A program made the translations under genes and the position numbers. Shown in pieces: positions 5,331 to 27,994 of a stretch of 43,224 nt of DNA. Below the pieces are notes generated by a model. That model was not told where the DNA came from. It ran no database searches and worked only from the letters and a program-made list of their open reading frames with translations. This stretch comes from Candidatus Omnitrophota bacterium. GTDB lineage: Bacteria > Omnitrophota > Gorgyraeia > 2-02-FULL-51-18. The DNA is taken from NCBI GenBank assembly GCA_016206805.1, contig JACQQX010000041.1, positions 1 through 43,224 of the forward strand. Reading direction: 5' to 3'. How positions within the stretch are numbered: position 1 is the first letter of the stretch; each line of letters opens with the position of its first letter.

Positions 5331-5339
5331 AGATTGATT

Positions 5340-5475: not shown

Positions 5476-5479
5476 ATCA

Positions 5480-6853: not shown

Positions 6854-6916
6854 CCCGATCGAGTCGAAAACGAGTCGAGGGATCGAGTTGATTCCTCGGC
6901 AGAGCTCGGAATGACT
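6848..6916. repeat. REP/MITE-like palindrome (TGTCAT family)
   Basis: gtcatcccga...gagggatc..gattcctc...tcggaatgac between the TPR gene stop and the nuoD start. Confidence 0.85.
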
Positions 6917-8389: not shown

Positions 8390-8397
8390 AAAACAAT

Positions 8398-8489
8398 TGT
8401 CATTCCGAGCGCAGGCGCTTGCGCCGAAGTCGAGGAATCAAGCTGATCCCTCGCGGAGTTTATCCCCTGAAAGGGGACTCGGGATGACA
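8398..8489. repeat. REP/MITE-like palindrome (TGTCAT family)
   Basis: tgtcattccgagcgcaggcgcttgcgccg...ctcgggatgaca between nuoB and nuoC. Confidence 0.9.
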
Positions 8490-8491
8490 TC

Positions 8492-9336: not shown

Positions 9337-9342
9337 GGGCTC

Positions 9343-9372
9343 ATTATAACCAGATAAAGGGCCGCGTGACAA
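9343..9372 (-). promoter_or_regulatory. Sigma70 promoter of nuo operon 1, probably leaderless
   Basis: TTGTCA-18 nt-TATAAT, 6 nt before the nuoA ATG; no SD. Confidence 0.6.
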
Positions 9373-9491: not shown

Positions 9492-9713
9492 ATGTTAAAA
9501 CATGCGCCCAAAAAAATCGTTTCCGAAGAAAGTCTTATGCTTGTCGAAAAGATCTATCAAAAAGAAAAAAAATTGGCTAAGCTGGTAACCCACATCTGGA
9601 TCAAGAAAGCACACTGTCAAGCAGCGATGCCGGCCGCGTGTAAGGCCAAACGGGCTGCGGCGAGGGCGTTGCCTAACAACCGCCCCAAGGCCTTGACCGT
9701 GGTTTGGGAGTAA
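9492..9713 (+). CDS. Small basic hypothetical protein (uncertain), overlaps the giant gene 3' end
   Basis: ORF starts at the predicted TSS of a TTGACA promoter; no recognisable family. Confidence 0.3.
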   Translation: MLKHAPKKIVSEESLMLVEKIYQKEKKLAKLVTHIWIKKAHCQAAMPAACKAKRAAARALPNNRPKALTVVWE

Positions 9714-12700: not shown

Positions 12701-15700
12701 AGGCTCCGTCCGCTCATTCCCTCGGGGTCTGTCCCCGCTTAAGAAGTCATAAAAAAGGCTTATTAAATAAATAGATCCGGCGGCCCCTAAAAGCGCTAAC
12801 AGTGTTTCCCGGCGATCCATTTTTCCCGCCAGCCGCGCGGCATTTGAGGCTGAAGGAGAATCGGTCTGGGCTGCTTCCGCCCTCGGCCTTCCGCCTTCCG
12901 CCGGTTCTTTCCCCGCCGGCCTTGCCCCGCGCCCGGCAAGGGGCCGCGCGGAGTCATCTCCCGCCACATGGACTTCCGCCAGTGGAAGAATTTGAAAATG
13001 AGGGATTAAGTTTGGCGAGGGGGTTTGTTGTAATAGGCCCAGGATGGCTCGGAGAGCGACCTCAAAAGGAGTGATCCATCCGCCGACGTCTTCCAGACCT
13101 TGAGAGCTGATTCTCACGTTGGCCAGCGCTGCTTCGCTCGGACCGTAAATAGTCAACTCGTTGATATTTTCTCTTAAACTCACGCCGGCCGCCGCCTCCC
13201 GCACGGCCCTTTCAAAAGAAGCGACCACGGGAAGCTCGTTTTCCAGGCGCGTCAAAAACCCCGACAGAACCTCAAGCGGTTTATCGTGGGCGGTTGTCCA
13301 ATCAACGGCGTGAATGAATACACGGTGGTTCCGGAAAATCCTCTCCAAAAGCCGCTGGATCTCCACCTGGCTCGAGCGATCCAGCGCGGCGCCTCCAAAC
13401 CGGATGTCGATATCCGAAGGGAAAACCGCGGCGGCTTTTCCGGCACGATGAAGCCGCTGGGGATAAATAACATTAAAGAACGCGTCCCCGTAGTCGGCGA
13501 TGTCCTGAGTGATGTAATTGAGAGCCGCCTGATCGGGAAACAGACCCAGTCGCATCGCGCCGCGGGCAAAACTCCCCGTCAAAAAAATCTCGGCTCCCGG
13601 CGCGATGCGGGAAACGCCTCCGCTCAACTCACCAGCGGCCGCGCGAATCCGATCGATGGTTCGGCGAACACCGTCGAGGGTGACCGCCATTCCCTTGTCG
13701 TTAAAATCGCCCTCTTCCCGACGACCGGTCGCCAACCGCGCGGCGGAAGGAGTCTGGTCCGCTGATTCCATGTCCGAAATGAAACGAAGCAAATCATTCA
13801 CGAGCCGGTTGAACTCCCTCAGGCTCCAGGCCAGCTCCAGCGCCCCGGCAGGCTCGCCCGTCTTCGCGTTAAGCTGCTCACTCATGACCTGCCCGTTCAG
13901 ATGACGCATATGGCTGGTTATCCAATCCAAATAACCCAAAGCTTTTTCAAGAACTTTATCCTGAGTGCTGGCCCTCACATCCGTGCCCAACAGGATGTGG
14001 AACGCCTGGGGATTAATGCGAGGATTGGGGTTTTCCGCGAAAAGCCGGAGCATGTAAAAAAGAAGCCGGCCGTACCAGGCCGTTGTCAGATACCAGGGAT
14101 TCTGACCCACATAGCCATCCAGAGGATAGCGCCCGATTCCCTGCCCCTTCCTCGGGCCATTCTCATCTTTCCACTCCCCGTTGATGGGGTAAAGCGAACG
14201 AAACACGATTTCATGGGCCGCAAAAGTTTGAATCACATGAAGATCAACGGCCGTCAAGAAAGGCATGCCTTCACGGCTTTCCTCGATGCTGTGAATAATG
14301 GCGCCTATCACCGAGGAATCAATGGGCCTTACGGTACGCCTGTCCTGTTCGGTAACCGTCGAAACAATAATTTCAAAATCGCCCGCCTTTGTGTCGGCCT
14401 CTTCGTCCCCGTACTGGGCTTCGAGATATTTTTGTTTGATCGCCTCCCGCAATTCAAGAATTAGTGGGAGTTGTTTTTTGTTTTTGTCGTCCTCGTGAAG
14501 ATATCGCATCTCCCGCAAAACCTGGTCCAGCGGCTTGATGTGGTCTTTGCGGATATTTTGCCGTATTTCAACCGCTTTCGCCTCCCAACGTTCGATTTCT
14601 TCGCCGGCGATGCTCAGGCGCTTGGCTAAAACAACGGCCTTATCCAAGGCGCGCGCCTGAGCCATTCGTGTATAAAAATGCAGTCCGTACAATTCCTCCC
14701 AAAGGTCAAAGCAAGGCTGATCCGCCGTCCTGCTGACAAAAGCCGTCAGTCGCTGAACGATGGGCCATGTCTCTTTTCGGAGCTGATCATTCGTCGCCGT
14801 GCCCGGGGTTTGCTCCATACGCGCCAACGCTTGATCGACGTAAGTTACAACCGTCAGCGCCGCGCCGTCAAACTGCGGGTTGCCCCATGGTCCGGAATAT
14901 ATCGTCCCATCCACCTCCCATTTGGCGAAACCCAGCAAATCCGGGAAGTTCCGTGACCGGCTTTTGTCGTCTTCCTCAAAAACCTTGGCCATGTATTGAA
15001 AAAGGTAGGCGTGGATTTTGTGGTTGATGCGGCGCTTAAGGTCAGGCGGCAAATCCACGTATTGAACCAAATGGATAAGGCCTTTGATGAGCAGGGCGGC
15101 GTCACGAGGCCATACGTACCAATAGGGATGGATTTTACTATGGTGCCTGGCCGCCACAGCCGCTCCCTCGATCGCGGCCGGGACCGGATGCCATTCTTCC
15201 CTCGTTCCCATTTTTTGGAACGAGAAAACGCGGAATCCGTCTTGCGACGAAGGGTCAATCGGCAACGAAAAACTATCCTCGTAAAGATGCATCCCGTCTT
15301 TATAGTCCCTGTGACCTTCTCGCCGAATCTCATACCAATAATCCAGGGACCACCAGATGGACGACGTAAAAATACGGCCAATGGATTTTTTCCGGTCCGG
15401 CTCCGGGAGAGCGACAACAATGCCTGTGGAACAAACAGTTTTGGAAGGGTCCTGGTTTTTGTCCAGAGATTGGACGAAAGCCGGAACCCTTGGATCGTTT
15501 GTCAGAATTTTTGTAAAACCTTTCGCGATCAGGAGTTCTTCCGGGCTGGCGCCGGCTTTCAAGTTTTTTAGTTCGGTTGTTAAGTCATTCACCCGTTTTT
15601 CCAAATCTTTTTGTTCTTTCTCTTTTTCCGCCTCGGTAGGACGCCAAAACGGTCGGTCGCCCTCCCGTAACACAAACTCCAAAAGCTGTTCGGCCGTTTC

Positions 15701-18700
15701 CTGAAGCGTCCGTAAAGCCCAATTCTTTCGGTCACCCGCCGCTTCCGCCAATCGCGCGCCGCGTCCCGTTCGTCCTCGGGCGCGGATCGAGCCCCACGCG
15801 CTGTCAATAGGTTCCTTGAAAAACGGGTAAGCCGCCTTAAGCGCGGAAAAACGCCGCTGCGCGTGAGTCATCCGATCGGCAGGAGACGCGTAACTCATTA
15901 CCCGGGACATCGCATGACGAAGCAAGCGCTCAAACGGTGTCAGATAATACTCCCCGAATTCCTGCACCCGTCTATCCCATGAATAATCCGAGTTCAGCGC
16001 GTTGGAGACCACTTCTTTCCATTCGGCCGGACGGTTATAAACAGCCATCGCTTCCACGATGGCCCCAAACAACTCATCTTTATCGTATCCCTCAAAAATA
16101 AAACCGTTTCCGTCAGGGCGCCTCTGGGTGTGAAAAGACCGAACCGTGTCCTGAAGGCCGCCCGTTTTTCTCACGATGGGAACCGTTCCGTAAAGCATCG
16201 CGATTGGGGGAGTCAGGCCAAACGGCTCCGTTTTGGAGGGCACAAGAAACAGGTCGCTCCCCGCATACACGAGTTTGTCGTTGGAATCGATCCTGTAGCC
16301 TTCCAAGTCCACCGGGCCCCTGTCCAAACGATCGTCCGGATCGTTCAGATAAAAACGGAACCGTCCGTCATACCCGCTCTGCCAAAGGTATTGCGCCAGA
16401 TTTCTAAAGTTCGCCTTTTCCTCGTCAAAACCGTTCATGTCATTGAAAATAATGACTTGCGCGCCGAGCCTCAGGAACTTTTCGACGTTGTCCCGCACAA
16501 GACCCGTTCCCTTTTGGTCCGGATCCAACCGGGCGATCATGGAAATGATCGGCGCTTTCGGATCAACCTTCAAACCAAACCGCTTTTGCAATTCGGTCTT
16601 CGCCATGGGTTTTATTTTTTTCATCTGTTCAGCGTCCGTAAACCCGCGATAAGCGCCGGAGCCGTTCCCGTTTCCCTTGTCCAGTCCGTTGGCGATCGGG
16701 TGCCACGCTCCTTCCTGGAGTCTCCTTCCGGCGACTTCACCCAAACCCTCCGTCAGAGAAGGATCGCCGAGAATTTCCCCGCCGTATCCCCGGCTGACCG
16801 GATCGACCCCGTCGGCAAGCGCCATGGCCGCCCGCGCCAAATTAAACCCGCCTCGAAGCGAAAAATCACGGGCGTATTGGGCCGGATCCGTCAGATGAAG
16901 GCCGAGCATGCCGAACCACTCATCCGGAAATTGGCCCTGATAAGAGAGCCCGGCGTTGTGGATTCTGTAAAAATACATGGCCCGGGAAAGCGAGTCTTTA
17001 AAATCATTTCTCTCATCAAGATGCCAGCTGGAGTGTTCGAGCCTCGCCAGGATGGGGACAAGAGCCGTCATCCAGTCATGAGCGTGAATGACATCGGGGG
17101 CGGGCATCAGGTTTTTTTGAACTAATTTAGGAATGATCTCCATCACACTGCGTGAGATAAAAACAGCCTGCCCAAGCGCGGAGTCCGGATAAGTGGTGTC
17201 GTAGAGATGGTGCGTATAATCCAGGGACGGATCCGAAGCGTGAAAAAGCCAGTGGTCAACCCCGTTGACTACCGCGTGTTTCACCGCGCCGGGAACTTGC
17301 GCGTTTCCGACAGGAACTGAATATTCAATCCCTGTCGATCGGACTTCAAAATCCGGCGGCGCTGAGTTTCCATTGATTTTGCGCCGGTACTCCGGCATGA
17401 CTAACGAAACACGCGGTCTCCCCCGCTCATCCCTCGAACCCTGCCGCGCGATAGCCGCGGCCTGTTGAGCCGCCGAATCCCCGAGGCCTCCCCCTTTTGC
17501 GAACGGAACCGCTTCCGAAGTAACGATGGCAACCCGCGATGGAAACCCATCCCATGAGATCGCCTTTCCACGCTCCGCCAGCCGCGCGGCAGTGATTTTT
17601 AGCGCCACGTCCTTCGAAGTGAAATCACGGTGCGCAAAATCATACATTCGAACGAACCCGGATGGAGTCAGCATAGCCAGAGGAGCTCCTGTTTCTCGCA
17701 TTGTTTGAAAGTCCTCATCCTCAAGGTAGAGAGTTTCTCGTCCATCCGCATGGTAGCGTAGAGTAAAAAGCAGTACGGCATCTTCTGGAGTCTGGAGAAT
17801 GGTTTCAGCGGATTGGCCGGAAGAAGCCGGAATGATTTGTATTCCCCGCTTAAAATGATAGTAAACCTCAGCATCCTCTCGGAGCCCGCGCAAAGACCTA
17901 GATAAATAAGATGAGGCCCTTATGAAATCGACCAATTCACCCACTCGGCGATCAAAACGAGCTTTCTTAATGCGACTCACCCTCTCCTCAACAAGTCTTA
18001 CCTTGGCACGACGACCATACGGAAACCCGGAACTTCGCTCCTTGATGAACTTTCTAGCTCGATACACTATTTCGCGTAATTTGCCTGAAGAGATATTCAG
18101 TTCTTCCGCGGCTTGTTCATAACTTGTGCCTCGGATAATCAATAAAAGCGGCTCCTTCCATTCTGGCTTAAGCCTACTAATAGCGCGTCCAACGGCGTCC
18201 CAGGCTTCTTCAGCAACAATCTGTTTTAAAGGATCCGCTTCCGGCCTGTCAGGCAATCGAAGAAAAGCGTCAATGCCAAGGTCCGCCTTATCCGGATGTT
18301 TTGATAATACAATATCCTCATCCGAACGCCTGGCCTCACTACCCAATCCGATCATTCTGTCGCTCCCCTTTATTTCTCTCACTACCAGAAATCCCCGGCG
18401 AATAAGATAAGATAGTTTGCGCGCGATTTTCTTAATATGGGAAGGCGTGATCGGCTCGTCGGCTTTTATTCCCAAAAGTGTGCGGACACTATCGTGCTGT
18501 CGGATATAATCGGATAGCTCGAAATACCCCGCTTGGATTTTGCGATAGAAGGGAAGCTGCGGGTTGACCAAATCCGCGTAAAAACGGAATGCTAGGGTTT
18601 CTGCCTGCATCATTCGTTCAGTTTCACGCCGTGAATATCCTGCGATGTGGTATCGCTGAAAATGCCCTGGATTACGTTTAAAATATGGCATTAAGATTTC

Positions 18701-21700
18701 ATAAGGCACCGCCAACTCTTCGGCGACTTCTTCCATAGTCATTCCCCATAAGAGCTCGCCATAAGCATCCATCAAAGATTTTAAATCCATTGGAGTATCG
18801 TGCCGCTCCAAGACTTTACGCTCAGTCAAAGAGACGGGCGTGGCTTGGGATTTGAGTTCCGCCAGCCGCGCTCCCGGGGGAACCGTGGACGAGCGCCTAA
18901 CGAAACCAGGGAGATCTTCGTAGCCCAATGCCCGGCAAACGTCCTGGAAAATTCTATCTCTTGGTCGTTCGTTTTGAGCAAATTTCCAGAATTGCAGCGC
19001 GATTTGTGTTTGGACGGACAAGGACATTTCGGGCCTAACGATAAACCCATACCGGCCGGGATTTTTTTCGATCAGTCGGAGCATTTCATCACGAATGCGC
19101 TTTCTGGCGGACCGGCGATCCGGCAGAAGCTGGCTCTCATTCACGAGAAAATCAAATAGCCCCAAAAGCCCTCCGTGACGAAAATCGACCAGCATGGCAC
19201 GGCCTTCGCTGTCCGCCGATCCCCAGCGGTTTTCATTAAAATTCTTGTTAAAGATAGGGTTTCCATTATCCAAATGATGCCCGTATTCATGGGTGGCGAT
19301 GGATTGTAGAAACAACGGCTCGGCGTTCTCCGGATTCCCCACCAAAGAAAATAATTTTAGCCTGGACATGGAAAAAGCCCGATCTAGATTGACATCATTC
19401 GCCCCTCCGCTCTCAAACATAAGCGGTATATCCTCCACGCGCCTTAACGCTTCAAGCTTTTCTTGGATTCGAAACATTTCGCTCCGGATTTTCTCTACAT
19501 GGGATCTGAATGGATCCTCATACACCATGGGCTGTGAAAACAACGCCTCCCCGCCAACGCTTACCGTCTTTCCGATCACTCCGGCTTCTTTCATTTCCGG
19601 ATTGGACACCACAGGGACGGCGGGATTTCCGGGCATGTCGTTTAGCCTAACCGTGCTTTTGACCGGATAAATTCCATTGAGGGGAACGTAGCTTCTTTCA
19701 AAATTTGTTTTTTTGAACAACCACTCTCCCTTGTAAACAACAATAAAGCCGTGTCCTGCCGCATAAGCGCGAATGCGCCCGTAAAGAGCGCGATTCCCGG
19801 CTTTTGAGTCCAACGCGGCCCCGACGCCCTTACGGTATGCCTCTGGAAGAAAATCTAAAAGACGCCGATGAAATTCGTCCAGCATTTGAACGGTATCGTT
19901 ATTTTTGTCACGGCTAAGAATCCTGGACTCGAAACTACGAAACAATTCTTCCAGTCGCCGCATTTTAGGCGCGGTGTCCTCAGTTTCAGCCGATCCCTGA
20001 ACCGCAATTCGCGAAGGACGCTGCGGTCTCGGCCCCGCGTTTCGATCCTGTCTTGTCCAGCAACCGGCGCCCATTCCGATCATCAACACTCCTAAAAGAA
20101 AAACACTCCGAAATGCCCCCGCCACCGAAACGTCGGCGGCCAGCCGCGCGGCTGTGAGTTTCCAAGCTGCCAACATCATGGCCGGAGGGGATGGAAAAGA
20201 CTTGTTGAGTAGTTTTTTGTAATCTTCTGGGACGGTAAAAAACGACAACCGGTAGTCCCGTTCATCAATCAGCGATTGGGCGAATCGGATAAGACCCAGC
20301 GACGTTTCCGATATCACGTCATGGCCGAGGAATGTGATGATCAATAGCCCTCCGGGCTTGAGCACCCTTTTTGCCTGCTGAATCAGCGCCCATGGCCTTG
20401 AATCGATATTATTGATGGTGACAATATCCTGAGAGGAGACGCTCAGGCCCGGGACGTTGTGATAATTCGGCGCGGATCGGCCCTCAGGATCAGCGTGATA
20501 TAGCCGGCGTTCCGGCGAAGGGATATTCTCAACAAGACTTTTCATCGGCTCGACACCCATCACTCTGACATCAACCCTTAAAAGATTTTTGAGATAATCG
20601 CCGAATGCGGGAACAAACGCGCCGGAACCGCTGTCCAGATCAACAAACCGCAGCGGCGAAACATGGGTAAACGCTTGTTTGATCATTAATTTCAATAATA
20701 ATGTTTGCACCTCATCAATATTTGAAAGATATTGCCTCTCAAATTTATCCGGAACCGACGAAATGCTCCGGATGGTTACCTTCCATGGAGTGGACTTAAA
20801 CGGTAGAGCTATCGAAACCACAACCTCTTGCAAGGACAGCGCCTGAATGAGATCATCCAAACGTAGACCGTCGGGCGAAGTGGCCCCATGCCGCCTGACG
20901 CGTAGGCCATTTTTTCGGATTAAGGGATTTCCTAAATGAAACGAAAGGTTTCTAAGAAAGCTCATGGATTGATCGTGTAAATTCCCGGAAAGCACATCGC
21001 TCTCTGCTGCAACGTGGCCGGATACTTCGTTCATCAAACTAGCCAACCGGCTTGCGGCGGCAGGTTCGAGAATGGGAAGCGCGCGGACTCCACTTGCCGC
21101 GGGCAATGAGGAGTCCGCCGACGCCTTGTGGCGGACTCCGGACTGACTGGGAGAATGGGCAACAGCGGATCGAGAACGTGGTCCATTTTCCATTTTCCAT
21201 TTTCCATTTTCGGCCTTTCCAAGCGGCTCTAAAAGGACCTCCTCGTATTTTCGTTGAATGGTTTCGGAGCGGATGTTGGGGGTGAGGATAACGTAGGACC
21301 AGCCTTTTTCGCGGAAAAGCCGCTTCAAATGGTCGGTGTGATAACCACCGGCGATGAGAATTACCGCACGCTTGTCATTCCGAGCGGAGGCGCTTGCGCC
21401 GTAGTCGAGGAATCGACTTGATCCCTCGACTTCGCTCGGGATGACATTGCCTGTCTTATCAATAATCCGTTCGGTGTTTCTCACAAACGCCCTGTCCCGC
21501 GCCGCCACGGAGCCGTAAAACCGCCGCAGGCTTTTCTTGCCCTTCTCCAAAATATCCTCATACGGCGCCATATCCTCAAACGCGCCGCGGTCCAGAAGCT
21601 CGCGGTTCAAAAAAGCAAGCATCGACAGCGTCGAGAAATCCTTTTCGTTAAAATCAAATAGCCGGTATTCCTCAGAGGACATCTGTATCCGGTAAGCGTT

Positions 21701-22630
21701 TTCAAGAAGGCGAAGATAACGGTCAATGGCCCTTAGCTTAAAGGGGTCAGACCCCTGTGGATAACCGCTCTTTATCCACAGGGGTCTGACCCCTTTCAAT
21801 ATCTGTGAATAAACCTCTTCCTCCAACCGCTCCATTTCATCCAGCACGGCGTCAAAGTTGACCTTTGACAATTCATCCGGGTTATTAAAAGACTTGGGCA
21901 AGTGATTAAGAGAAGTGGGGATGGAATATTTCTGAGCCAACTGAATCAGTAAGGTCAGTCTGTCATTCCCGCGCAAGCGGGAATCCACCGGATCCCCGCT
22001 AAAAGATTGCGGGGATGACCATTCCTCGTAGTCCAATAACTCTTTCGGATAGACCCGCCGTTTGAGCGTCTCCACCGCCCGGCGGATGCGCGCCAAGTAT
22101 GCCAAAGAAGCTTCTCTTTTTTTCACCAGTTCCGCGTACGCGCGGAGGCTTCGCATGTACAACCGCTCATCCTCAATGCCGAGCATTTTCATGGGATGAC
22201 TGGATGTGAGATTGAGATATTCTTCGCCGGAGATCCTGCCTTCGATGAGAAACTTCCTCGCCACGCGGCGCCAGACTTTGTCGGATGCGATATTTTTAAT
22301 GGGAGTAAGCGTATCGTCTTTCGTGCCGCCTTCCACAAGAACCGTGTGGATTTTGTATCGCGTCATCAATGAGTCAATGGTTTTGGAAAGATTCTCCTGG
22401 CCGGAGAGATTGGAATGGGCGTCTTGGATGTGAATGATCAGCGGCGCCCCGGCACGAATATACCGCTCTTTTAAAGAACAAAATTCAAGAGGCGGCTCAA
22501 AAGAAGGCGCGTCGGCCGCCGGCCGTATTAAGGAACCGGCCTGCGTGATGTCGGAGAAAAGGAAAATACCTGCCGCTAAGAGGGCGACGATTTTTGTCGT
22601 ATTTCGATGGGATTTTCGGGTCATTTTCAT
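9617..22630 (-). CDS. Giant (4337 aa) multi-module exported polyprotein with ARLA-delimited cargo domains
   Basis: Uninterrupted 13 kb ORF, Sec-like N-terminus, recognisable methyltransferase, HEXXH, sigma70 r4, GT5, GH15 and NTase-like segments separated by [GA][AS]RLA. Confidence 0.93.
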   Translation of the reverse strand: MKMTRKSHRNTTKIVALLAAGIFLFSDITQAGSLIRPAADAPSFEPPLEFCSLKERYIRAGAPLIIHIQDAHSNLSGQENLSKTIDSLMTRYKIHTVLVEGGTKDDTLTPIKNIASDKVWRRVARKFLIEGRISGEEYLNLTSSHPMKMLGIEDERLYMRSLRAYAELVKKREASLAYLARIRRAVETLKRRVYPKELLDYEEWSSPQSFSGDPVDSRLRGNDRLTLLIQLAQKYSIPTSLNHLPKSFNNPDELSKVNFDAVLDEMERLEEEVYSQILKGVRPLWIKSGYPQGSDPFKLRAIDRYLRLLENAYRIQMSSEEYRLFDFNEKDFSTLSMLAFLNRELLDRGAFEDMAPYEDILEKGKKSLRRFYGSVAARDRAFVRNTERIIDKTGNVIPSEVEGSSRFLDYGASASARNDKRAVILIAGGYHTDHLKRLFREKGWSYVILTPNIRSETIQRKYEEVLLEPLGKAENGKWKMENGPRSRSAVAHSPSQSGVRHKASADSSLPAASGVRALPILEPAAASRLASLMNEVSGHVAAESDVLSGNLHDQSMSFLRNLSFHLGNPLIRKNGLRVRRHGATSPDGLRLDDLIQALSLQEVVVSIALPFKSTPWKVTIRSISSVPDKFERQYLSNIDEVQTLLLKLMIKQAFTHVSPLRFVDLDSGSGAFVPAFGDYLKNLLRVDVRVMGVEPMKSLVENIPSPERRLYHADPEGRSAPNYHNVPGLSVSSQDIVTINNIDSRPWALIQQAKRVLKPGGLLIITFLGHDVISETSLGLIRFAQSLIDERDYRLSFFTVPEDYKKLLNKSFPSPPAMMLAAWKLTAARLAADVSVAGAFRSVFLLGVLMIGMGAGCWTRQDRNAGPRPQRPSRIAVQGSAETEDTAPKMRRLEELFRSFESRILSRDKNNDTVQMLDEFHRRLLDFLPEAYRKGVGAALDSKAGNRALYGRIRAYAAGHGFIVVYKGEWLFKKTNFERSYVPLNGIYPVKSTVRLNDMPGNPAVPVVSNPEMKEAGVIGKTVSVGGEALFSQPMVYEDPFRSHVEKIRSEMFRIQEKLEALRRVEDIPLMFESGGANDVNLDRAFSMSRLKLFSLVGNPENAEPLFLQSIATHEYGHHLDNGNPIFNKNFNENRWGSADSEGRAMLVDFRHGGLLGLFDFLVNESQLLPDRRSARKRIRDEMLRLIEKNPGRYGFIVRPEMSLSVQTQIALQFWKFAQNERPRDRIFQDVCRALGYEDLPGFVRRSSTVPPGARLAELKSQATPVSLTERKVLERHDTPMDLKSLMDAYGELLWGMTMEEVAEELAVPYEILMPYFKRNPGHFQRYHIAGYSRRETERMMQAETLAFRFYADLVNPQLPFYRKIQAGYFELSDYIRQHDSVRTLLGIKADEPITPSHIKKIARKLSYLIRRGFLVVREIKGSDRMIGLGSEARRSDEDIVLSKHPDKADLGIDAFLRLPDRPEADPLKQIVAEEAWDAVGRAISRLKPEWKEPLLLIIRGTSYEQAAEELNISSGKLREIVYRARKFIKERSSGFPYGRRAKVRLVEERVSRIKKARFDRRVGELVDFIRASSYLSRSLRGLREDAEVYYHFKRGIQIIPASSGQSAETILQTPEDAVLLFTLRYHADGRETLYLEDEDFQTMRETGAPLAMLTPSGFVRMYDFAHRDFTSKDVALKITAARLAERGKAISWDGFPSRVAIVTSEAVPFAKGGGLGDSAAQQAAAIARQGSRDERGRPRVSLVMPEYRRKINGNSAPPDFEVRSTGIEYSVPVGNAQVPGAVKHAVVNGVDHWLFHASDPSLDYTHHLYDTTYPDSALGQAVFISRSVMEIIPKLVQKNLMPAPDVIHAHDWMTALVPILARLEHSSWHLDERNDFKDSLSRAMYFYRIHNAGLSYQGQFPDEWFGMLGLHLTDPAQYARDFSLRGGFNLARAAMALADGVDPVSRGYGGEILGDPSLTEGLGEVAGRRLQEGAWHPIANGLDKGNGNGSGAYRGFTDAEQMKKIKPMAKTELQKRFGLKVDPKAPIISMIARLDPDQKGTGLVRDNVEKFLRLGAQVIIFNDMNGFDEEKANFRNLAQYLWQSGYDGRFRFYLNDPDDRLDRGPVDLEGYRIDSNDKLVYAGSDLFLVPSKTEPFGLTPPIAMLYGTVPIVRKTGGLQDTVRSFHTQRRPDGNGFIFEGYDKDELFGAIVEAMAVYNRPAEWKEVVSNALNSDYSWDRRVQEFGEYYLTPFERLLRHAMSRVMSYASPADRMTHAQRRFSALKAAYPFFKEPIDSAWGSIRARGRTGRGARLAEAAGDRKNWALRTLQETAEQLLEFVLREGDRPFWRPTEAEKEKEQKDLEKRVNDLTTELKNLKAGASPEELLIAKGFTKILTNDPRVPAFVQSLDKNQDPSKTVCSTGIVVALPEPDRKKSIGRIFTSSIWWSLDYWYEIRREGHRDYKDGMHLYEDSFSLPIDPSSQDGFRVFSFQKMGTREEWHPVPAAIEGAAVAARHHSKIHPYWYVWPRDAALLIKGLIHLVQYVDLPPDLKRRINHKIHAYLFQYMAKVFEEDDKSRSRNFPDLLGFAKWEVDGTIYSGPWGNPQFDGAALTVVTYVDQALARMEQTPGTATNDQLRKETWPIVQRLTAFVSRTADQPCFDLWEELYGLHFYTRMAQARALDKAVVLAKRLSIAGEEIERWEAKAVEIRQNIRKDHIKPLDQVLREMRYLHEDDKNKKQLPLILELREAIKQKYLEAQYGDEEADTKAGDFEIIVSTVTEQDRRTVRPIDSSVIGAIIHSIEESREGMPFLTAVDLHVIQTFAAHEIVFRSLYPINGEWKDENGPRKGQGIGRYPLDGYVGQNPWYLTTAWYGRLLFYMLRLFAENPNPRINPQAFHILLGTDVRASTQDKVLEKALGYLDWITSHMRHLNGQVMSEQLNAKTGEPAGALELAWSLREFNRLVNDLLRFISDMESADQTPSAARLATGRREEGDFNDKGMAVTLDGVRRTIDRIRAAAGELSGGVSRIAPGAEIFLTGSFARGAMRLGLFPDQAALNYITQDIADYGDAFFNVIYPQRLHRAGKAAAVFPSDIDIRFGGAALDRSSQVEIQRLLERIFRNHRVFIHAVDWTTAHDKPLEVLSGFLTRLENELPVVASFERAVREAAAGVSLRENINELTIYGPSEAALANVRISSQGLEDVGGWITPFEVALRAILGLLQQTPSPNLIPHFQILPLAEVHVAGDDSARPLAGRGARPAGKEPAEGGRPRAEAAQTDSPSASNAARLAGKMDRRETLLALLGAAGSIYLISLFYDFLSGDRPRGNERTEPQSAKEERSERVLAGLKRFFDEIRPGLSANERAWVDEFLNVPNKLLMIFPDIGDEDPQPPRPAAAVKINDTIGAKDTRQLTLNVNHFEKLLESAGRNAATRHALIALALKEGSTLSDMKAHPKEYRRLNALAEDFFRRAEAGDLPDWFCAQLADRLIEMELFGYRAPLEYFRRLGVERLPDDGPARRWSSLLLMSKNDDDLRLNIFLSEVQLFDRRLWQRIAEMARARGKAFAKPKEGGVEWTFKPGALRFLRSGQPKNENNSSTAARLAARDYLADLENRINNLKSVQDIWELLHDWSQVREREGEEEAERWIPRLREAIYHYYEASIPAASDVSTARSLRRSFLKISRIAFTQERRAALTRLTADVIAKLQKRPGSRLAEKRDWGFTVLDRAIGETERILSLLGRVGLTPEERSQMRLGFEKIRRALILIKNRGLRFTDLWDGGLGKVLNKLMSAMDAIVGRFHDSPFRYENELAGSMKRLRHYLLIIKPDDSFNAVLKDSEELVYAVEGAWWGDDRENPVSLWRKTAVALYERLLEIKAAPNWRDQLAEPFFVFSIAFLPDLIEAATRFLTESQIQREIISSAESLLEFFSLHGHDLMARRWLLQMGAHERWTEFHREAVCELVRIAAGAPDLKDHLFSLFESQNPNWRRGARDVIAALDRPDPPGARLASKPHPRFESHRNGRARRAIRAGKREEVRGERENDPSSAFETRVGARWVAPGEGDREPVALLASDILPRPLQRGSRLSRPEILSLERSFSEAVRLNELPERLAYPVRIGKGAGFAVREEDGGVLWDGMRRPILRIRGGSSESRFPMEAFGNDRFGRDEMEVLFARIHQLGLDVTEDVRDGKPLLIRVTDDWENMKPARRYALVKSIEFIRQNFNNVRFKADDLSDDLVGFEPEKTINVFPAHLEEQALTKKGMGVLVWEEDSHQDFLPFTAMFMAAIAEGRLEYRDLDDKGIQLFQTLIRGGIHASFRLTPEVYEAMQNFDEDFDYSQTTVKALGRLLGNALAAARLALHAAGIAA
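12842..13729 (-). other. Giant-protein module: Pol-beta-type nucleotidyltransferase-like domain
   Basis: IFLTGSFARG and SDIDI motifs, with an unusually long spacer. Confidence 0.5.
13745..15745 (-). other. Giant-protein module: GH15 glucoamylase domain
   Basis: YWYVWPRDAAL, WGNPQFDGAAL, FDLWEE..G.HFYT, IGRYPLDGY..NPWYLTT, MSEQ...GE..GA.ELAWS. Confidence 0.88.
15761..17575 (-). other. Giant-protein module: glycogen/starch synthase (GT5, GlgA-like) domain
   Basis: SEAVPFAKGGGLGD, PDVIHAHDW, IHN..YQG, PSKTEPFGL, YGTVPIVRKTGGLQDTV, DYSW. Confidence 0.92.
17591..18859 (-). other. Giant-protein module with sigma70 region-4 (ECF-like) HTH
   Basis: AISRLKPEWKEPLLL..GTSYEQAAEELNISSGKLREIVYRAR (~18040-18236) and a second HTH-like GMTMEEVAEELAV. 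Confidence 0.7.
18875..20137 (-). other. Giant-protein module: membrane/lipoprotein-like segment plus HEXXH zinc-peptidase motif
   Basis: VFLLGVLMIGMGAGC; ATHEYGHHLD (19277-19291) with a downstream Glu (SEGRA). Confidence 0.55.
20153..21040 (-). other. Giant-protein module: class I SAM-dependent methyltransferase-like domain
   Basis: FVDLDSGSG (motif I variant), VMGVEP, QDIVT, RVLKPGGLLII. Confidence 0.75.
21183..21210. repeat. 4x CCATTTT tandem heptamer, translated in the giant ORF
   Basis: Directly visible; encodes ENGKWKMENG. Confidence 0.85.
21373..21447. repeat. TGTCAT-family palindrome inserted in frame in the giant ORF
   Basis: tgtcattccgagc...ctcgggatgaca; encodes VIPSEVEGSSRFLDYGASASARND. 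Confidence 0.9.
21743..21793. repeat. GGGGTCAGACCCC/DnaA-box palindrome inserted in frame in the giant ORF
   Basis: ggggtcagacccc-TGTGGATAA-ccgctct-TTATCCACA-ggggtctgacccc; 51 nt, encodes GVRPLWIKSGYPQGSDP. Confidence 0.9.
21961..22019. repeat. GTCATTCCCGCG..GCGGGAATCC palindrome inserted in frame in the giant ORF
   Basis: tgtcattcccgcgcaagcgggaatcc...gcggggatgac; encodes SSPQSFSGDPVDSRLRGND. Confidence 0.85.
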
Positions 22631-22948: not shown

Positions 22949-23314
22949 ATGTCGCTGTTGCATGACTACGCGTATGTGTTGGGTTTTTTCATTATTGGCA
23001 TCGGATTTGTTGTCATTAATTCCGTCCTTCCTCTCCTGGTCAGTCCCAAAAGTCGCGGCGCGATGCGCGCAAAACCTTATGAGAGCGGTGAAGTGCCTCT
23101 GGGCGGCGCGTGGGTGCAGTTCGATATCAATTACTATCTTTTCGCCCTCATCTTCATCGCCTTCGACGTGGAGGCGGCTTTTTTGTTTCCGGTGCTGGTC
23201 GTTTATAAAGACATCCCCGGCATAGCGGCGCTGGTGGAAGTGACGCTCTTTTTAGCCATCCTCTCTTTCGCCATTCTCTATGCCTGGAAAAAGGGACTCT
23301 TCGCGTGGAAATAA
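22949..23314 (+). CDS. nuoA: Complex I-like subunit A
   Basis: [36 protein letters not shown]. Confidence 0.95.
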
Positions 23315-23907
23315 ACCAGGATCCCCATTATTTAAACACCCAAACCCCCTCTCCCGACATGGTTCGCTTTTTTAAAGTGGAAGACGTTTTCAATATGGCG
23401 CGCGCCAACTCGCTTTGGCCGCTGACTTTCGGCTTGGCTTGCTGCGCGATTGAGCTGATGGCCGGGGGCGCGGCGCGCTTCGATATGGATCGCTTCGGCT
23501 TCGGCGTGTTCCGCCCTTCTCCGCGCCAGTCGGACCTCATGATTGTCGCCGGAACGATTTCGCGCAAGATGGTCCCCTGCATTAAGACCCTTTATGACCA
23601 GATGCCTTCACCCAAGTATGTGATCGCGCTCGGCGGATGCGCGACCGCCGGCGGCCCCTTCAAATATCCCGGCCAATACGGCATTCTCGAAGGCATTGAC
23701 AAGATCATCCCGGTAAACGTTTACATTCCCGGCTGCCCGCCAAGACCCGAAGCGTTGATCGCGGGCATCCTCGAACTCCAAAAACAGATTAAAGAAGGCC
23801 GCACGCAGGGCGTGATGTCCCCCGCCGCGGTCAACGACTCCCAAGACGCGCGTCCGGCCGAATACAAAAACGCGATGTCCCGCGCGGAGTTTAGGAAACA
23901 GGTGTAA
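23305..23907 (+). CDS. nuoB: Complex I-like subunit B
   Basis: [40 protein letters not shown]. Confidence 0.96.
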
Positions 23908-23913
23908 ATCATG

Positions 23914-23940
23914 TGTCATTTCGAGAGAAGCGAGAAATCT
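23914..23940. repeat. Truncated TGTCATTTCG...GAGAAATCT repeat
   Basis: tgtcatttcgagagaagcgagaaatct between nuoB and nuoCD. Confidence 0.6.
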
Positions 23941-23963
23941 TGAGTATCACCGTGGAAAGAAAC

Positions 23964-25586
23964 ATGAAACAGTGGCTTTTGGACACGATCAAACCGGACG
24001 AGTTTGCCGAAAAGGATTTAAAAAAGAACGGTATTTTATTCGAAGCGCTCGCCCGGCCCGATCAGATTCAAAGTGTCGCCCGTGAGTTCTTAGCGCAGCG
24101 CTATTTTCTGGAAAGTCTGACCGCTGTGGACTTCGCCGAATGTCTGGAGCTGGTTTATCACTTTAACCGCTGGGACGGATGCCGGCGCGTCTGCGTCAAA
24201 GTCCTTGTTCCCAAAGAAGGCGGCGTTCCCGGCAACGGCGCGTGGCATGCGCCGACTCTCTCCTCTATTTTCAAATCCGCCAACTGGTTTGAGCGGGAGA
24301 TCCACGAGATGTTCGGCATCGTTTTTGACGGGCATCCGCATTTAAAAAGACTGTTGCTTCCCGAAAGTTCCACCATTTTTCCCCTTTTAAAAAGTTTCAA
24401 AGGCGAGCCCAAAGGATCCGACGTTGCCCAGTCTTTAAAGCTGATCGAGGAAGACGCCAAAGAATTTCGGGTCCAAGAAGCGCAAAGCCTGACTAAAAAA
24501 GACAAAGATTATTATCTGAACCTCGGACCCCAACACCCTTCCACGCATGGCGTATTGCGCGTGCTGCTCCATCTTTCCGGTGAGCGGGTGCTGGATGGCG
24601 AACCCATCATCGGTTATTCGCATCGTCATCATGAAAAAATGATGGAAATCCAGACCTATTTTGGCTGCTGGCCCAATATGGGCCGCTTGGATTACGTGGG
24701 CGCCATGAGCTACAACATGGGTTACGCGCTGTTAGCCGAAAAAGCCCTGGGCCTTGTCCCCCCTCCTCGCGTGGAACATATCCGCGTTCTGATGACCGAG
24801 CTCAATCGCATTTCCAGCCACCTTTTATGGATGGGCACTTTCCTTTTGGATTTGGGAGCCTTTACTCCGTTTTTTTACTGCTTCGACGACCGCGAACAAA
24901 TCCTCGATATCCTGGAAATGGCCACCGGCGAGCGATTAACCTATGACTATTTCCGCTTTGGCGGCGTCGACCATGATATTCCCCAGGAGTTCGCTCCGGC
25001 AATCAAGGCTTTTATTCCGGGATTTAGAAAACGTTTGGCCGATTACGATAAATTGATCCGCCGGAACATCATTTTTGAAAAAAGAACCAAGGGATTGGGC
25101 GTTCTCACCAAAGAAAGCGCGCTCTCTTACGGCGTGACAGGCCCTTCGCTTCGCGCGGCCGGCGTCGCTTACGATTTGCGGCGGGATGAGCCTTATTCCC
25201 TCTACCCGGAGCTGGATTTTAATATTCCAACGGCGACCGACAGCGACGTCTATTCCCGTTATTGGGTGCGTTTTCGCGAGATGGAAGAAAGCCTTAAAAT
25301 TATTTCCCAACTCGTTGACAAAATCCCGGCCGGAGAAACTAAACTCGCGCGCGTGCCAAAAAATTTCCCCAAGGGCGAATATTATTCAGCGTGCGAATCC
25401 GCCCGCGGACTGTTTGGGATGCATCTTGTCAGTGATGGGTCGCTTAATCCCTATCGCTTCAAGCTCCGCACCCCGTCTTTTTCGAATTTGAATTCCATTA
25501 TCGACATGCTGCCAGGCTGCCTGATATCCGACGTGGTGGCGGTTCTGGGAAGCATTGATATCGTGTTGCCAGAGATTGATAGATAA
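23964..25586 (+). CDS. nuoCD: Fused complex I-like subunit C/D
   Basis: ANWFEREIHEMFGIVFDGHP followed by LNLGPQHPSTHGVLR, RLDY, EIDR; no NiFe CxxC ligands. Confidence 0.94.
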   Translation: MKQWLLDTIKPDEFAEKDLKKNGILFEALARPDQIQSVAREFLAQRYFLESLTAVDFAECLELVYHFNRWDGCRRVCVKVLVPKEGGVPGNGAWHAPTLSSIFKSANWFEREIHEMFGIVFDGHPHLKRLLLPESSTIFPLLKSFKGEPKGSDVAQSLKLIEEDAKEFRVQEAQSLTKKDKDYYLNLGPQHPSTHGVLRVLLHLSGERVLDGEPIIGYSHRHHEKMMEIQTYFGCWPNMGRLDYVGAMSYNMGYALLAEKALGLVPPPRVEHIRVLMTELNRISSHLLWMGTFLLDLGAFTPFFYCFDDREQILDILEMATGERLTYDYFRFGGVDHDIPQEFAPAIKAFIPGFRKRLADYDKLIRRNIIFEKRTKGLGVLTKESALSYGVTGPSLRAAGVAYDLRRDEPYSLYPELDFNIPTATDSDVYSRYWVRFREMEESLKIISQLVDKIPAGETKLARVPKNFPKGEYYSACESARGLFGMHLVSDGSLNPYRFKLRTPSFSNLNSIIDMLPGCLISDVVAVLGSIDIVLPEIDR

Positions 25587-25592
25587 TAATGC

Positions 25593-25728
25593 GAGCACGA
25601 AATCCGAAGCACGAAGCACGAAACAAATTAGAAATTAAAATGACACAAATATCAAACAAGAGGTTTAGAGCATTGAAATTTGAAAAATTGGAATTTGTTT
25701 CGTGCTTCGGATTTCGTGCTTCGGATTT
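25593..25728 (+). repeat. ~136 bp heptamer-based inverted-repeat element directly after nuoCD
   Basis: Copy of 5340-5475, same orientation relative to transcription. Confidence 0.9.
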
Positions 25729-25734
25729 AAATAA

Positions 25735-26694
25735 ATGATTCCCGAATTATTTACAATTATTCTTTACGGTACCCTCGTCATCCTATTTGTCTCTGTCAAT
25801 GCTCTCTTTTTAGTGTGGATGGAGCGCCGTGTGTCGGCGCGCATCCAGCTGAGGCGCGGGCCGATTCATGTCGGCTGGCAGGGACTTTTGCAAACCGTGG
25901 CCGATGCCGTGAAGCTCATCAGCAAGGAACTGGTCCTTCCCAGCGAATCGGACCGTTTTTTGTATATCCTGGCTCCGATGCTGGTCTTTGCTCCGCTCCT
26001 GGCGGCTTTTCTGATATTGCCTTTGGGGCCGGGAATGGTGATGCGCGACTTGAATGTCGGATTTCTCTTTGCGTTCGCGCTCACCAACATCACCTTTATC
26101 GGGATTTTTATCGCCGGCTGGTCTTCCAATAGCAAATATGCCCTCTTGGGCGCGATGCGGGCTGTGGCACAAAATATTTCCTACGAAATCCCCTTGCTTC
26201 TTTCAACCATGGGCGTGGTTTTGCTGGCCCAAAGCCTGAAAATGTCGGAACTGGTGGCTGCGCAAAACTCCGTGTGGTTTATATTCCTCCAACCGGTGGC
26301 TTTTTTGATTTTTCTCTGCTCAAGCCTTGCCGAAGCCAATCGCGCCCCGTTTGATATTCCGGAAGCGGAGTCGGAGCTGGTCGCCGGATTCCATACCGAG
26401 TATTCCGGGATGCGTTTCGCGCTCTTTTTTCTCGGAGAATATACGGCAATTTTTATTTCGTCGGCCATCGCGGCAACCCTTTTCCTGGGCGGATGGGAGG
26501 GACCGTTTTTGCCGGGCGCTGTCTGGCTTCTGATCAAAACTTACGCGATTGTGTTAGTAGTGATGTGGATACGCTGGACGTTTCCGCGTCTGCGCAGTGA
26601 TCAACTCATGAGCTTCGCTTGGAAGGTGTTGATCCCTTTTGCGATTGTGAATGTGTTCATCACCGCCGTTGTGTTAGAATTGCAAAAAATTTAA
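25735..26694 (+). CDS. nuoH: Complex I-like subunit H
   Basis: [43 protein letters not shown]. Confidence 0.96.
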
Positions 26695-27195
26695 ATGACC
26701 TATCTTAAAGAAGTCCTCAGAGGTTTTTGGAGTCTCCTGGTGGGCATGGGGATCACGTTCCGGTATTTTTTCAAAAAACCGGTGACGGTGATTTACCCCA
26801 AAGAACGCATCCCCATAAAACGCTTCAAAGGCCCGATCAATTTCGTCGTCGATGAAAAAAGCGGCGACCATAAGTGCATCGCCTGCAATGCCTGCATTAA
26901 AGTCTGCCCTTCCCGCTGCATGTCTCTGGAAATCGGAAAAAGCGCGGCCGATGGCAAGCGGGTTTTGACGGATTTTAAAGTCAATTACATGCTCTGCAGT
27001 TTGTGCAGTTTATGCATCGATGTCTGCCCAACCGACGCGCTCAAACACGCCGACGGCGACTATGATATGGTGTCCATGACGCAAAAAGAGCTCATCATGG
27101 ACCTTTTGGAGCCATTTGAGAAACGGGGTACGCCGCTCACCAAGATTCCGCTGGCGACTGAGACTCCAAAACCCGAAGCGCCGAAACCCCAATGA
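26695..27195 (+). CDS. nuoI: Complex I-like subunit I
   Basis: CIACNACIKVCP, CSLCSLCIDVCP. Confidence 0.93.
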   Translation: MTYLKEVLRGFWSLLVGMGITFRYFFKKPVTVIYPKERIPIKRFKGPINFVVDEKSGDHKCIACNACIKVCPSRCMSLEIGKSAADGKRVLTDFKVNYMLCSLCSLCIDVCPTDALKHADGDYDMVSMTQKELIMDLLEPFEKRGTPLTKIPLATETPKPEAPKPQ

Positions 27196-27680
27196 TGGAA
27201 AATATCGTTTTCTTTGGCGTAGTGGCGCTCACTCTTTTGGGCGCCTTCTTAGCGGTCTCGCTCCGCAATGTTTTTTACAACGCGTTGGCGCTGGTGCTAT
27301 GCCTTTTTGGCGTAGCTTGTCTTTTCATTTTTCTCAATAGCGAGTTTCTAGCCGTCATGGAAGTCATTGTTTATATCGGCGCCATTTCTATCGCCATCAT
27401 TTTCGCCATCATGCTTTCCACGCCGATGCTTCAAAAAACCGAAGCGCCTCAAGACCGCTTGAAAACATTGCGTTCTTTCGTCATCGCCGCTCTTTTATTC
27501 GGCGGCCTATTCAAGGCTTTACAGAAAACAACCTGGCCCGCGGCCGGCGTCGATGGGGATTACAGCCTTCATGCGATCGGTCGCCTGCTGTTAACAGGCC
27601 AGGTGCTGCCGTTTGAAGCGGTATCGCTGGTGCTTTTAGTCGCCATCATGGGCGCGCTCTTACTGGCGGAGAAAAAATGA
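27192..27680 (+). CDS. nuoJ: Complex I-like subunit J
   Basis: EFLAVMEVIVYIGAI, LPFEAVSLVLLVAIMGA. Confidence 0.92.
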   Translation: MMENIVFFGVVALTLLGAFLAVSLRNVFYNALALVLCLFGVACLFIFLNSEFLAVMEVIVYIGAISIAIIFAIMLSTPMLQKTEAPQDRLKTLRSFVIAALLFGGLFKALQKTTWPAAGVDGDYSLHAIGRLLLTGQVLPFEAVSLVLLVAIMGALLLAEKK

Positions 27681-27994
27681 GCGCGGCCCAGTCTCTTTCC
27701 AGTTATCTTTTGATTTCCGCGGCGCTTTTTTCCATCGGCGTTTTCGGTCTCCTGAGCCGGCGGAATCTAGTGGCCATTCTCATATCGCTTGAGCTCATCC
27801 TGAACTCCGCGAGCCTTAATTTTGTGGCTTTTAATAAATTTTCTCTCGTCGATAAGGCACTAGGGCAGGTCTTTGCGATTTTTATCATTGCGCTTGCGGC
27901 GGCTGAAGTTTGTATCGGGCTCAGCCTGATTCTTTTATTGCATCGTAAAAAAGATTCCATCAATGTGGATGAAGCGCGGGAGCTAAGAGGATGA
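27677..27994 (+). CDS. nuoK: Complex I-like subunit K
   Basis: RRNLVAILISLELILN, LAAAEVCIGL. Confidence 0.94.
   Translation: MSAAQSLSSYLLISAALFSIGVFGLLSRRNLVAILISLELILNSASLNFVAFNKFSLVDKALGQVFAIFIIALAAAEVCIGLSLILLLHRKKDSINVDEARELRG

Follow-up and report, generated by a model that had tools for sequence, protein, structure and literature searches.

A giant ORF and its N-terminal head

The window analysed here is the whole of a 43,224-nt stretch of DNA (contig JACQQX010000041.1, positions 1 to 43,224, of assembly GCA_016206805.1) from a Candidatus Omnitrophota bacterium. A single open reading frame (ORF) of 4,337 codons (4337 amino acids, aa) lies on its minus strand, and the encoded protein consists of a signal peptide, an N-terminal domain that we call the head, approximately 10 cargo modules marked off by copies of a short junction motif, and a tail (Table 1). 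The first-pass annotation of this DNA had flagged the first 525 aa of the ORF (21056–22630) and proposed that they include a domain resembling the TraB/Tiki/ChaN/EreA superfamily, which might cleave the downstream ARLA sites of its own chain. The five motif strings on which that proposal was built follow the Sec-like signal in the order described, with IIHIQDAH at aa 65, VLVEGG at aa 97, MLGIED at aa 149, ARDRAFVRN at aa 377, and VILIAGGYH at aa 423. The first copy of the junction motif, said to lie right at the end of the domain, is indeed found there: ASRLA begins at aa 527, and the flagged range ends two residues earlier, at aa 525.

The leader has a K/R-rich N-terminus followed by a hydrophobic 19-mer (aa 14–32, mean Kyte-Doolittle value 1.72), and aa 9–32 were modelled as a helix; across the family, 97 of the 115 heads with a complete leader contain a hydrophobic 15-mer. 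The head is the conserved first module of the giant proteins of Omnitrophota or, in some lineages, the product of a stand-alone gene directly upstream of them. When the head was searched with HMMER over 1.84 billion cluster representatives, 6335 matched at E ≤1e−3, 3351 at E ≤1e−10, and 386 at E ≤1e−30. Among the 150 matches listed, most were proteins of 1,000–7,364 aa with the head match near their own N-terminus, and the head proteins with a named source were hypothetical proteins of Candidatus Omnitrophica/Omnitrophota. At E ≤1e−10, the head was present in 114 of 151 sampled Omnitrophota genomes, in 89 of 124 high-quality genomes, and in 85 of 112 genera. The ESM Atlas returned only unnamed clusters from Omnitrophota and Elusimicrobiota, with scores of 0.87–0.89. 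The host genome of the window (1.39 Mb in 73 contigs, 87.6% complete) has 11 head-bearing ORFs, each a giant ORF with the head at its start. These 11, plus two motif-rich ORFs that run off the ends of their contigs, comprise about 45,000 codons, or approximately one-tenth of the assembly.

Eight loci with the head as an ORF of its own (479–621 codons) were inspected, and a hydrophobic leader was present in all eight of these heads. At five loci, the stand-alone head is followed directly, and on the same strand, by giant or long ORFs that range from 591 to more than 2,976 codons; a separate head gene that immediately precedes giant ORFs occurs in the lineages represented by L019, L020, L022, L023, and L024. 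The adjoining giant or long ORFs have a signal-peptide-like leader of their own in eight of the eight cases with a visible N-terminus. Because both the stand-alone heads and the adjoining giants have leaders, both are predicted to leave the cytoplasm, and the head could work in trans. At L024 (G022:C9:73000–92900), the stand-alone head is found beside a headless, signal-led giant of 2,614 codons with 12 R-S/A-E-x-R junctions (16 SELR 4-mers), and at L022, only one in-frame stop codon lies between the head and the following ORF of 1,425 codons.

Table 1. Positions of the giant ORF and its features in the window
Feature	Amino acids	Window positions	Strand	Remark
Giant ORF (signal peptide, head, ~10 cargo modules, tail)	1–4337	9617–22630	minus
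Sec-type signal peptide/leader	1–32	22535–22630	minus
Head, TIKI/TraB/ChaN/EreA-superfamily hydrolase-like domain	40–480	21191–22513	minus	AlphaFold2 model and fold searches
D70-A-H72 (first acid, first His)	70–72	22415–22423	minus	End of strand 64–70; D and H each 162/162
E100 (VLVEGG)	100	22331–22333	minus	After strand 96–99; 162/163
E153 (GIED), further invariant acid	153	22172–22174	minus	After strand 148–151; 163/163
Helical insert/lid that divides the alpha/beta core in two	155–395	21446–22168	minus	Helices 155–393
In-frame copy of a short genome-wide DNA repeat	279–297	21742–21794	minus	blastn against the genome, up to 18 copies
R378-D379 (ARDRAFVRN)	378–379	21494–21499	minus	In helix 360–393; R 157/157, D 156/157
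In-frame copy of a second genome-wide DNA repeat	395–410	21403–21447	minus	blastn, up to 38 copies
H431, second His (G-G-Y-H-T)	431	21338–21340	minus	After strand 422–428; 155/155
Junction 1, ASRLA	527–531	21038–21052	minus	Directly after the head
Junction, ARLA	828–831	20138–20149	minus	Directly before TM-like segment 1
Transmembrane (TM)-like segment 1	834–857	20060–20131	minus	Acidic before, Arg-rich after
Junction, ARLA	1254–1257	18860–18871	minus
Junction, ARLA	1682–1685	17576–17587	minus	Before the GT5/GlgA-like module
Junction, ARLA	2292–2295	15746–15757	minus	Between the GT5 and GH15 modules
Junction, ARLA	2964–2967	13730–13741	minus	After the GH15 module
Junction, ARLA	3265–3268	12827–12838	minus	Directly before TM-like segment 2
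TM-like segment 2	3276–3294	12749–12805	minus	K/R before the segment
Junction, ARLA	3576–3579	11894–11905	minus
Junction, SRLA	3687–3690	11561–11572	minus
Junction, ARLA	3979–3982	10685–10696	minus	Start of the last (tail) module
Conserved C-terminal tail ending ...AA-COOH, with motif copy	4326–4329 (motif)	9620–9709	minus	Motif 12 aa from the end

Predicted fold and catalytic residues of the head

An AlphaFold2 model of the head, built from a 60-sequence alignment, had a mean predicted local distance difference test (pLDDT) score of 82.7, with 335 residues at ≥90, and a predicted template modelling (pTM) score of 0.77. Its strands (aa 51–57, 64–70, 96–99, 148–151, 422–428, and 445–451) are flanked by helices. 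We compared the model with 48,161 representative chains using VIA-align, an unbiased search that is independent of Foldseek and has a stated noise band of Z 7–8. The two best matches were ChaN (2g5g; Z 9.3, 183 residues aligned, root-mean-square deviation [rmsd] 5.4) and EreC (6xcq; Z 9.3, 165 residues, rmsd 4.8), followed by HopBA1 at rank 3 (5t09; Z 9.1, 162 residues, rmsd 3.5), an Ere-like protein at rank 4 (2qgm; Z 8.7, 171 residues, rmsd 7.3), BcR135 at rank 6 (2rad; Z 8.3, 158 residues, rmsd 5.1), PMT at rank 15 (2ebf; Z 6.7, 138 residues, rmsd 4.3), and RRSP at rank 18 (5w6l; Z 6.4, 150 residues, rmsd 4.7). The rows between these TIKI-superfamily entries were unrelated proteins that matched the helical insert only. 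Foldseek against the PDB placed two EreC entries and the Bacillus Ere-like protein 3b55 as its top three (E 0.036–0.042) and gave no match at E ≤1e−3; when the Foldseek candidates were re-scored with VIA-align, the TIKI-superfamily group occupied ranks 1–6 and 8 (3b55 at Z 8.5). Another chain, DQ of PDB entry 8b6h (a subunit of Tetrahymena complex IV), scored as high against the head as TIKI-superfamily rows did (Z 8.3, 188 residues) and may be an unrecognised TraB-like protein.

Residue conservation was counted in a MAFFT alignment of 164 heads, over filled columns. D70, H72, N74, E137, E153, R378, and H431 were invariant, and E100, R172, and D379 had one miss each; N74, Q78, and E153 are further invariant residues of the head. 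All 14 of the distant paralogues and stand-alone heads examined also have D70, H72, E100, E153, R378, and H431; E137, D154, and R172 vary among them. The heads beside motif-less giants (L018, L019, and L020) have N137, K154, and Q172 at these positions and the GARLA-type heads have E137, D154, and R172; positions 137, 154, and 172 could be specificity positions. In the model, each catalytic residue is placed either at the C-terminal end of a strand or in a helix that precedes one. The near-total conservation of this polar D/H/E/R/H set at strand ends suggests that it is an active site, not a scaffold, and the head is very probably an active exported hydrolase of the TIKI type.

The site can be compared residue by residue with that of characterised members of the superfamily. 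The RRSP structure paper (PMC6254334) describes a 2His/2Glu set (E3900, H3902, E3930, and H4030) plus R4001, equates H3902 and E3930 of RRSP with H85 and E113 of Bcr135, and reports that PMT is without the set and inactive. The same paper names PMT, HopBA1, Bcr135, and ChaN as TIKI-superfamily folds and includes both esterases (Ere) and non-enzymes (ChaN and PMT C1/C2) in the superfamily (PMC6254334). In the head, D70-x-H72 corresponds to E3900-x-H3902, R378 to R4001, and H431 to H4030, with Asp in place of Glu as the first acid, and the spacing of 28 residues from H72 to E100 equals that from H3902 to E3930 in RRSP and from H85 to E113 in Bcr135. An alignment of 11 TraB sequences, in which H41, E67, R228-N229, and G-A-x-H252 are invariant, shows the same order as the head.

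Several results weigh against the superfamily assignment. No Pfam family matched aa 1–525 at E ≤10, and PF01963, PF04187, and PF05139 gave no match to the head above threshold; a phmmer search of the PDB with the head likewise returned no match, and a search with the 60-sequence profile returned low-complexity matches only (such as huntingtin polyQ and SNF5). When the head was aligned using hhalign with Escherichia coli YbaP, and with the 11-sequence TraB alignment, the probability was 0.2, and the sole stretch paired with YbaP, that around R378-D379, was without significance. The TraB alignment is shallow, as the 120 YbaP homologues listed were enterobacterial and ≥59% identical (nearly all ≥67%), so that the hhalign value of 0.2 does not exclude homology. 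Profile scans of the whole genome with PF01963 and PF04187 found nothing, and the PF04187 control also matched nowhere. Weak hints appeared in Pfam searches of 21 heads: PF04187 at E 0.043 and DUF5694 at E 0.0018, each in one head. Finally, Z scores of 8–9 stand just above the noise band of VIA-align, and the superfamily call is made because so many of the top rows belong to one superfamily, not because of the height of Z. The likeness to TraB, Tiki, ChaN, and EreA proposed in the first-pass annotation is thus supported by the modelled structure and by the invariant H/E/R-D/G-x-x-H set, with no counterpart in sequence profiles. The assignment is supported by the predicted fold and the catalytic residues together, and because these match while Pfam, PDB sequence, and hhalign searches give nothing significant, the head is an unannotated family of the TIKI superfamily.

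The long insert that had been noted between the motifs corresponds to the helical region that separates the two halves of the core; searched alone, it matched only generic helical bundles (such as TTYH and designed bundles). One copy of a genome-wide DNA repeat lies within it, and a second repeat begins at its end. Both copies coincide with dips in pLDDT (to 60 in the block at aa 281–290 and to below 50 at aa 402–418), and similar repeat-derived peptides occur at the same loop positions in homologous heads of other genomes. Because these in-frame repeats are translated as low-confidence loops, the giants seem to tolerate such insertions.

Junctions, cargo modules, and tail

ARLA occurs nine times in the giant ORF, against 0.37 expected from composition, and two SRLA copies bring the number of sites to 11. 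The codons at these sites vary (Arg is encoded by CGG, CGA, AGG, or CGT; Leu by CTG or TTG; and Ala by GCG, GCC, GCT, or GCA), with GCG-CGG over-used. This variation suggests that the motif is selected at the protein level, and an origin of the motif at the DNA level was set aside on the same ground. Across close homologues, the motif can be written [G/A]-[A/S/T]-R-[L/M]-[A/S], with G at position −1 in 67% of 825 sites and with the lineage variants GARMA and GTRL[AS]. Three or more matches to [AST]R[LM][AS] were found in 86 of 105 long close homologues, giving 761 in total against 115 expected, and junctions of the R-[SA]-E-x-R type were absent from the giant ORF and numbered at least three in only one of the 105. 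In the host genome, AARLA (44), GARLA (22), and GARMA (17) dominate and are limited to giants, and no non-giant ORF of ≥300 aa has more than two matches. Furthermore, the head and the junctions occur together in every motif-rich ORF of this genome with an assembled N-terminus. Of the 124 family proteins with ≥900 aa, 95 have their first motif 16–176 aa past the equivalent of Y462, and the junction column at aa 3979 is conserved in ≥50% of 89 aligned tails.

Pfam domains in the giant ORF were Sigma70_r4_2 (aa 1479–1528), GT5 (aa 1699–1956), Glycos_transf_1 (aa 2119–2206), and GH15 (aa 2484–2936). None of the 11 junction sites falls within one, and the GT5/GlgA-like (aa 1699–2229), GH15, and sigma-70 region 4 domains are each confined to a single inter-motif module. 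The GT5 module is a divergent paralogue (119.7 bits); the canonical stand-alone GlgA is encoded on another contig (273.7 bits). The cargo modules are not common to the giants: there were 133 other proteins with a match to the head but none with a match to the HExxH-containing module (aa 832–1257). By the positive-inside rule, the first of the two TM-like segments in the cargo is predicted to be an N-out/C-in stop-transfer sequence and the second to be N-in/C-out. The hydrophobic stretch of aa 834–858 (20057–20131), which follows right after the second junction, ends in a lipobox-like ...G-A-G-C; the charges on either side favour stop-transfer, which would place the Cys on the cytoplasmic side.

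The last module, of about 240–390 aa and most often near 340, is the only other widely common element beside the head. The tail is amphipathic and ends in G/S/T-[A/S]-A-COOH in 97 of 163 family proteins (AA in 62 and SA in 35), and a motif copy lies within 25 aa of the C-terminus in 19 of 99 long proteins, the giant ORF included. It is poorly conserved, with only A355 invariant in 13 sequences, and the AlphaFold2 model from this 13-sequence alignment was unusable (pLDDT 38.2, pTM 0.29). The end of the tail resembles the small, apolar C-termini that are read by tail-specific proteases or ClpX. An S41 tail-specific protease that reads the ...SAA end and works back through the junctions was considered and dropped: a PF03572 (S41) scan of the host genome gave no match, though a genome that is 87.6% complete leaves room for one.

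The giant gene is flanked by two divergent nuo (NADH dehydrogenase, complex I) sets, at 684–9372 on the minus strand and 22949–32719 on the plus strand; in one, nuoC and nuoD are separated by a TPR protein, and in the other, the two are fused as nuoC-D. Its other neighbours are a CitMHS transporter and an RND efflux set, and neither a protease nor dedicated secretion genes were found among the genes adjoining it.

Possible cleavage at the junctions and comparison with known systems

The best single explanation for the head is that it is the enzyme that cuts the junctions, to which we give a probability of roughly 0.4. The head would most likely act as a peptidase on the outer side of the cytoplasmic membrane, with the giant proteins as its own substrates, and the exported parts of these chains would be cut at the short G/A-A-R-L/M-A junctions. 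Such cutting would take place on the head's own chain and probably also in trans, and it would release modules much as the cysteine protease domain of MARTX frees effector modules. What the data show directly are the motifs, the fold class, invariant catalytic residues, export signals, and a head that occurs together with giants and junctions; the hydrolytic activity, a peptide rather than an ester as substrate, the junction as that peptide, and any cleavage at all are what we infer. In a crude topology count, in which the signal peptide is placed outside and the side flips at each hydrophobic 19-mer, 511 of 696 junctions fall on the same side of the membrane as the head. A co-folding run of the head (aa 40–480, 60-row alignment) with a junction peptide (aa 1236–1275), made without controls, gave scores of 0.06 and 0.05, where the mark is 0.32; these scores speak neither for nor against binding of the junction by the head.

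Several observations count against the head as the cutter of the junctions. The same topology count puts 185 of 696 junctions (27%) on the cytoplasmic side, at a nearly equal density (2.02 per 1000 aa, versus 2.31 outside). In the giant ORF itself, the stretch between the TM-like segments, which is predicted to be cytoplasmic, contains the four junctions from aa 1254 to aa 2964, and a fifth junction, at aa 3265 just before TM-like segment 2, is on the same predicted side; the sigma-r4, GT5, and GH15 modules found there are enzyme and regulator types that are normally cytoplasmic. A hydrophobic segment starts within 45 residues after 42 of 688 junctions, compared with 77 of 3440 random positions (p 5e−7), and signals of the twin-arginine (Tat) type follow 13 of 688 junctions, compared with 19 of 6360 random positions (odds ratio 6.4, p 4e−6). 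Tat substrates fold in the cytoplasm before export, so that a junction followed by a Tat signal would have to be opened in the cytoplasm, beyond the reach of a Sec-exported head. Two such post-junction signals occur in the host genome, where TatC is present: S-R-R-D-F-L-R at aa 3925 of the G000:C7 ORF and D-R-R-S-F-F at aa 2581 of the G000:C58 ORF are textbook twin-arginine signals, each a few residues past an internal junction and with a hydrophobic stretch next to it. Nor did head and junction covary in the host genome: the two heads closest to that of the giant ORF, C69 and C7 (55–56% identical), go with GARMA, and the giant ORF and the more distant C38, C55, and C58 have AARLA. Heads with no repeated linker, whose routine occurrence would refute the first-pass proposal, do exist in part of the family: loose motif matches number fewer than three in 19 of the 105 long close homologues and, in four of the five stand-alone-head loci, the adjoining giants lack any 4-mer that occurs four or more times. 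Cutting in cis, as originally suggested, is thus consistent with the co-occurrence and shared export of head and junctions, and the cytoplasmic-side junctions and Tat signals speak against it.

These same observations would also fit a head that is an active exported TIKI-type hydrolase with another substrate, the junctions being opened by a cytoplasmic enzyme or being mere linkers of fused genes, and we regard this explanation as the main rival, slightly less probable than cutting of the junctions by the head. The substrate could be envelope or prey molecules, attacked by an esterase or peptidase, or the head could clear signal-peptide-like fragments, as has been proposed for the PrgY/TraB pheromone-shutdown proteins. 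Signals enriched past the junctions fit modules that need free cytoplasmic N-termini, and the cytoplasmic-side junctions, the giants without a repeated motif, and junction variants that are independent of head relatedness all agree with it, as do the esterases within the superfamily and the stand-alone head at L025, which precedes ordinary-sized genes. However, another substrate leaves unexplained why there are 11 copies per genome, each at the very start of a giant ORF, and why a junction closes the head in so many proteins (95 of 124). The giants contain no alternative universal protease module, the host genome, as far as it is assembled, yielded no S41 protease, and the internal Tat-type signals could be relics of gene fusion instead of working signals.

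An improbable alternative is that the head is a non-catalytic module for delivery, anchoring, or ligand binding that pilots the giant to or across the envelope. The haem-binding ChaN is its joint best structural match, the head always follows a signal peptide, head and conserved tail frame the variable cargo, and PMT C1/C2 have the fold without catalytic residues or activity; the full D/H/E/R/H set, which inactive PMT lacks, is nevertheless invariant in 155–163 of the 164 heads and in all 14 distant ones. It is less probable still that the processing protease lies elsewhere in the giant. The module at aa 832–1257 contains the string H-E-Y-G-H, but it had no match (E ≤1e−5) in other head-bearing proteins, so that it was rejected as a universal protease and is regarded as cargo. 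The tail module is widespread enough for such a role; it is, however, weakly conserved, its model could not be used, and nothing in it indicates a protease fold.

A broader and more doubtful proposition is that Omnitrophota write operon-like sets of enzymes as Sec-led polyproteins that are cut by a TIKI-type head at a five-residue junction, which would be G/A-A-R-L/M-A here and R-S-E-L-R in other lineages. In a bolder version, the exported chains would be delivered to prey or host, where the released modules, some of which have a Tat or Sec signal of their own, would use the recipient's machinery. Were the head to cut the junctions, the TIKI superfamily would gain a very large branch (6335 representatives at E ≤1e−3) with a defined substrate; were it not to, a large uncharacterised family of exported, predicted enzymes tied to giants would remain. 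Whether the giants act as single chains or as cut pieces becomes, with a head and a defined junction in hand, a matter for a simple assay.

The Omnitrophota giants have been described as "Archaeovorins" by West-Roberts et al. in a 2023 preprint (bioRxiv 10.1101/2023.11.21.568195), which raised post-translational cleavage as an open question, with the cleavage points unknown, and proposed C39 and S8 peptidase domains as possible processors. A 2026 catalogue (bioRxiv 10.64898/2026.06.07.730766) distinguishes a "multi-enzyme metabolic cluster" class of giants and lists the starch synthase domain PF08323 among the commonest domains; at 4.3 kaa (thousand aa), the giant ORF falls under its 10-kaa cut-off. 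The present ORF resembles the giants of both preprints in coming from the same phylum and in being a very long, signal-peptide-bearing ORF that tiles unrelated enzymes. Neither a TIKI/TraB-type head nor a junction motif was found in the main texts of this literature on Omnitrophota giants. The residue-by-residue match to the RRSP/Bcr135 site, the counts of Tat signals and of topology, and the loci with stand-alone heads are new here.

As in the head, members of the TIKI superfamily (TraB/PrgY/GumN, PF01963; ChaN, PF04187; EreA/B/C; Bcr135/136; RRSP; PMT C1/C2; HopBA1; and vertebrate TIKI1/2) have a core of parallel beta-sheet with flanking helices, and the order of an acid-x-His, a Glu 28 residues on, an Arg, and a G-x-x-His is that of RRSP and Bcr135. 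ChaN, PrgY, and TIKI are extracytoplasmic, as the head is predicted to be. Unlike the known members, the head has Asp as its first acid, a 240-residue helical insert that splits the core, and the extra invariant residues N74, Q78, and E153, and it is either part of, or encoded next to, a giant multi-module protein.

MARTX toxins are single, very long secreted polypeptides with an array of effectors, among which RRSP is a TIKI-type endopeptidase (PMC6254334). The giant ORF is similar in placing variable, unrelated enzyme modules between conserved ends, with a built-in protease that is known in MARTX and proposed here. MARTX effectors are released by an internal cysteine protease domain, and export is by type I secretion; to our knowledge, no five-residue junction mark is present in MARTX. 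The TIKI-type domain is cargo in MARTX, whereas here the TIKI-type head is the proposed processor, and the Omnitrophota cargo appears metabolic or regulatory (GT5, GH15, and sigma r4) instead of toxic and is led by a Sec signal.

Viral polyproteins, such as those processed by picornavirus 3C, are encoded by one ORF, consist of protein-sized modules with short conserved peptides at the junctions, and have the protease in the same chain. If the head cuts the junctions, the giants would be the equivalent, in cells, of these viral systems, and bacteria would have a polyprotein strategy of which most examples to date are viral, with a few from toxins. They would differ from the viral systems in belonging to a cellular organism, in being signal-led chains that span the membrane, and in relying on a TIKI-type fold for a cleavage that is, in their case, a proposal.

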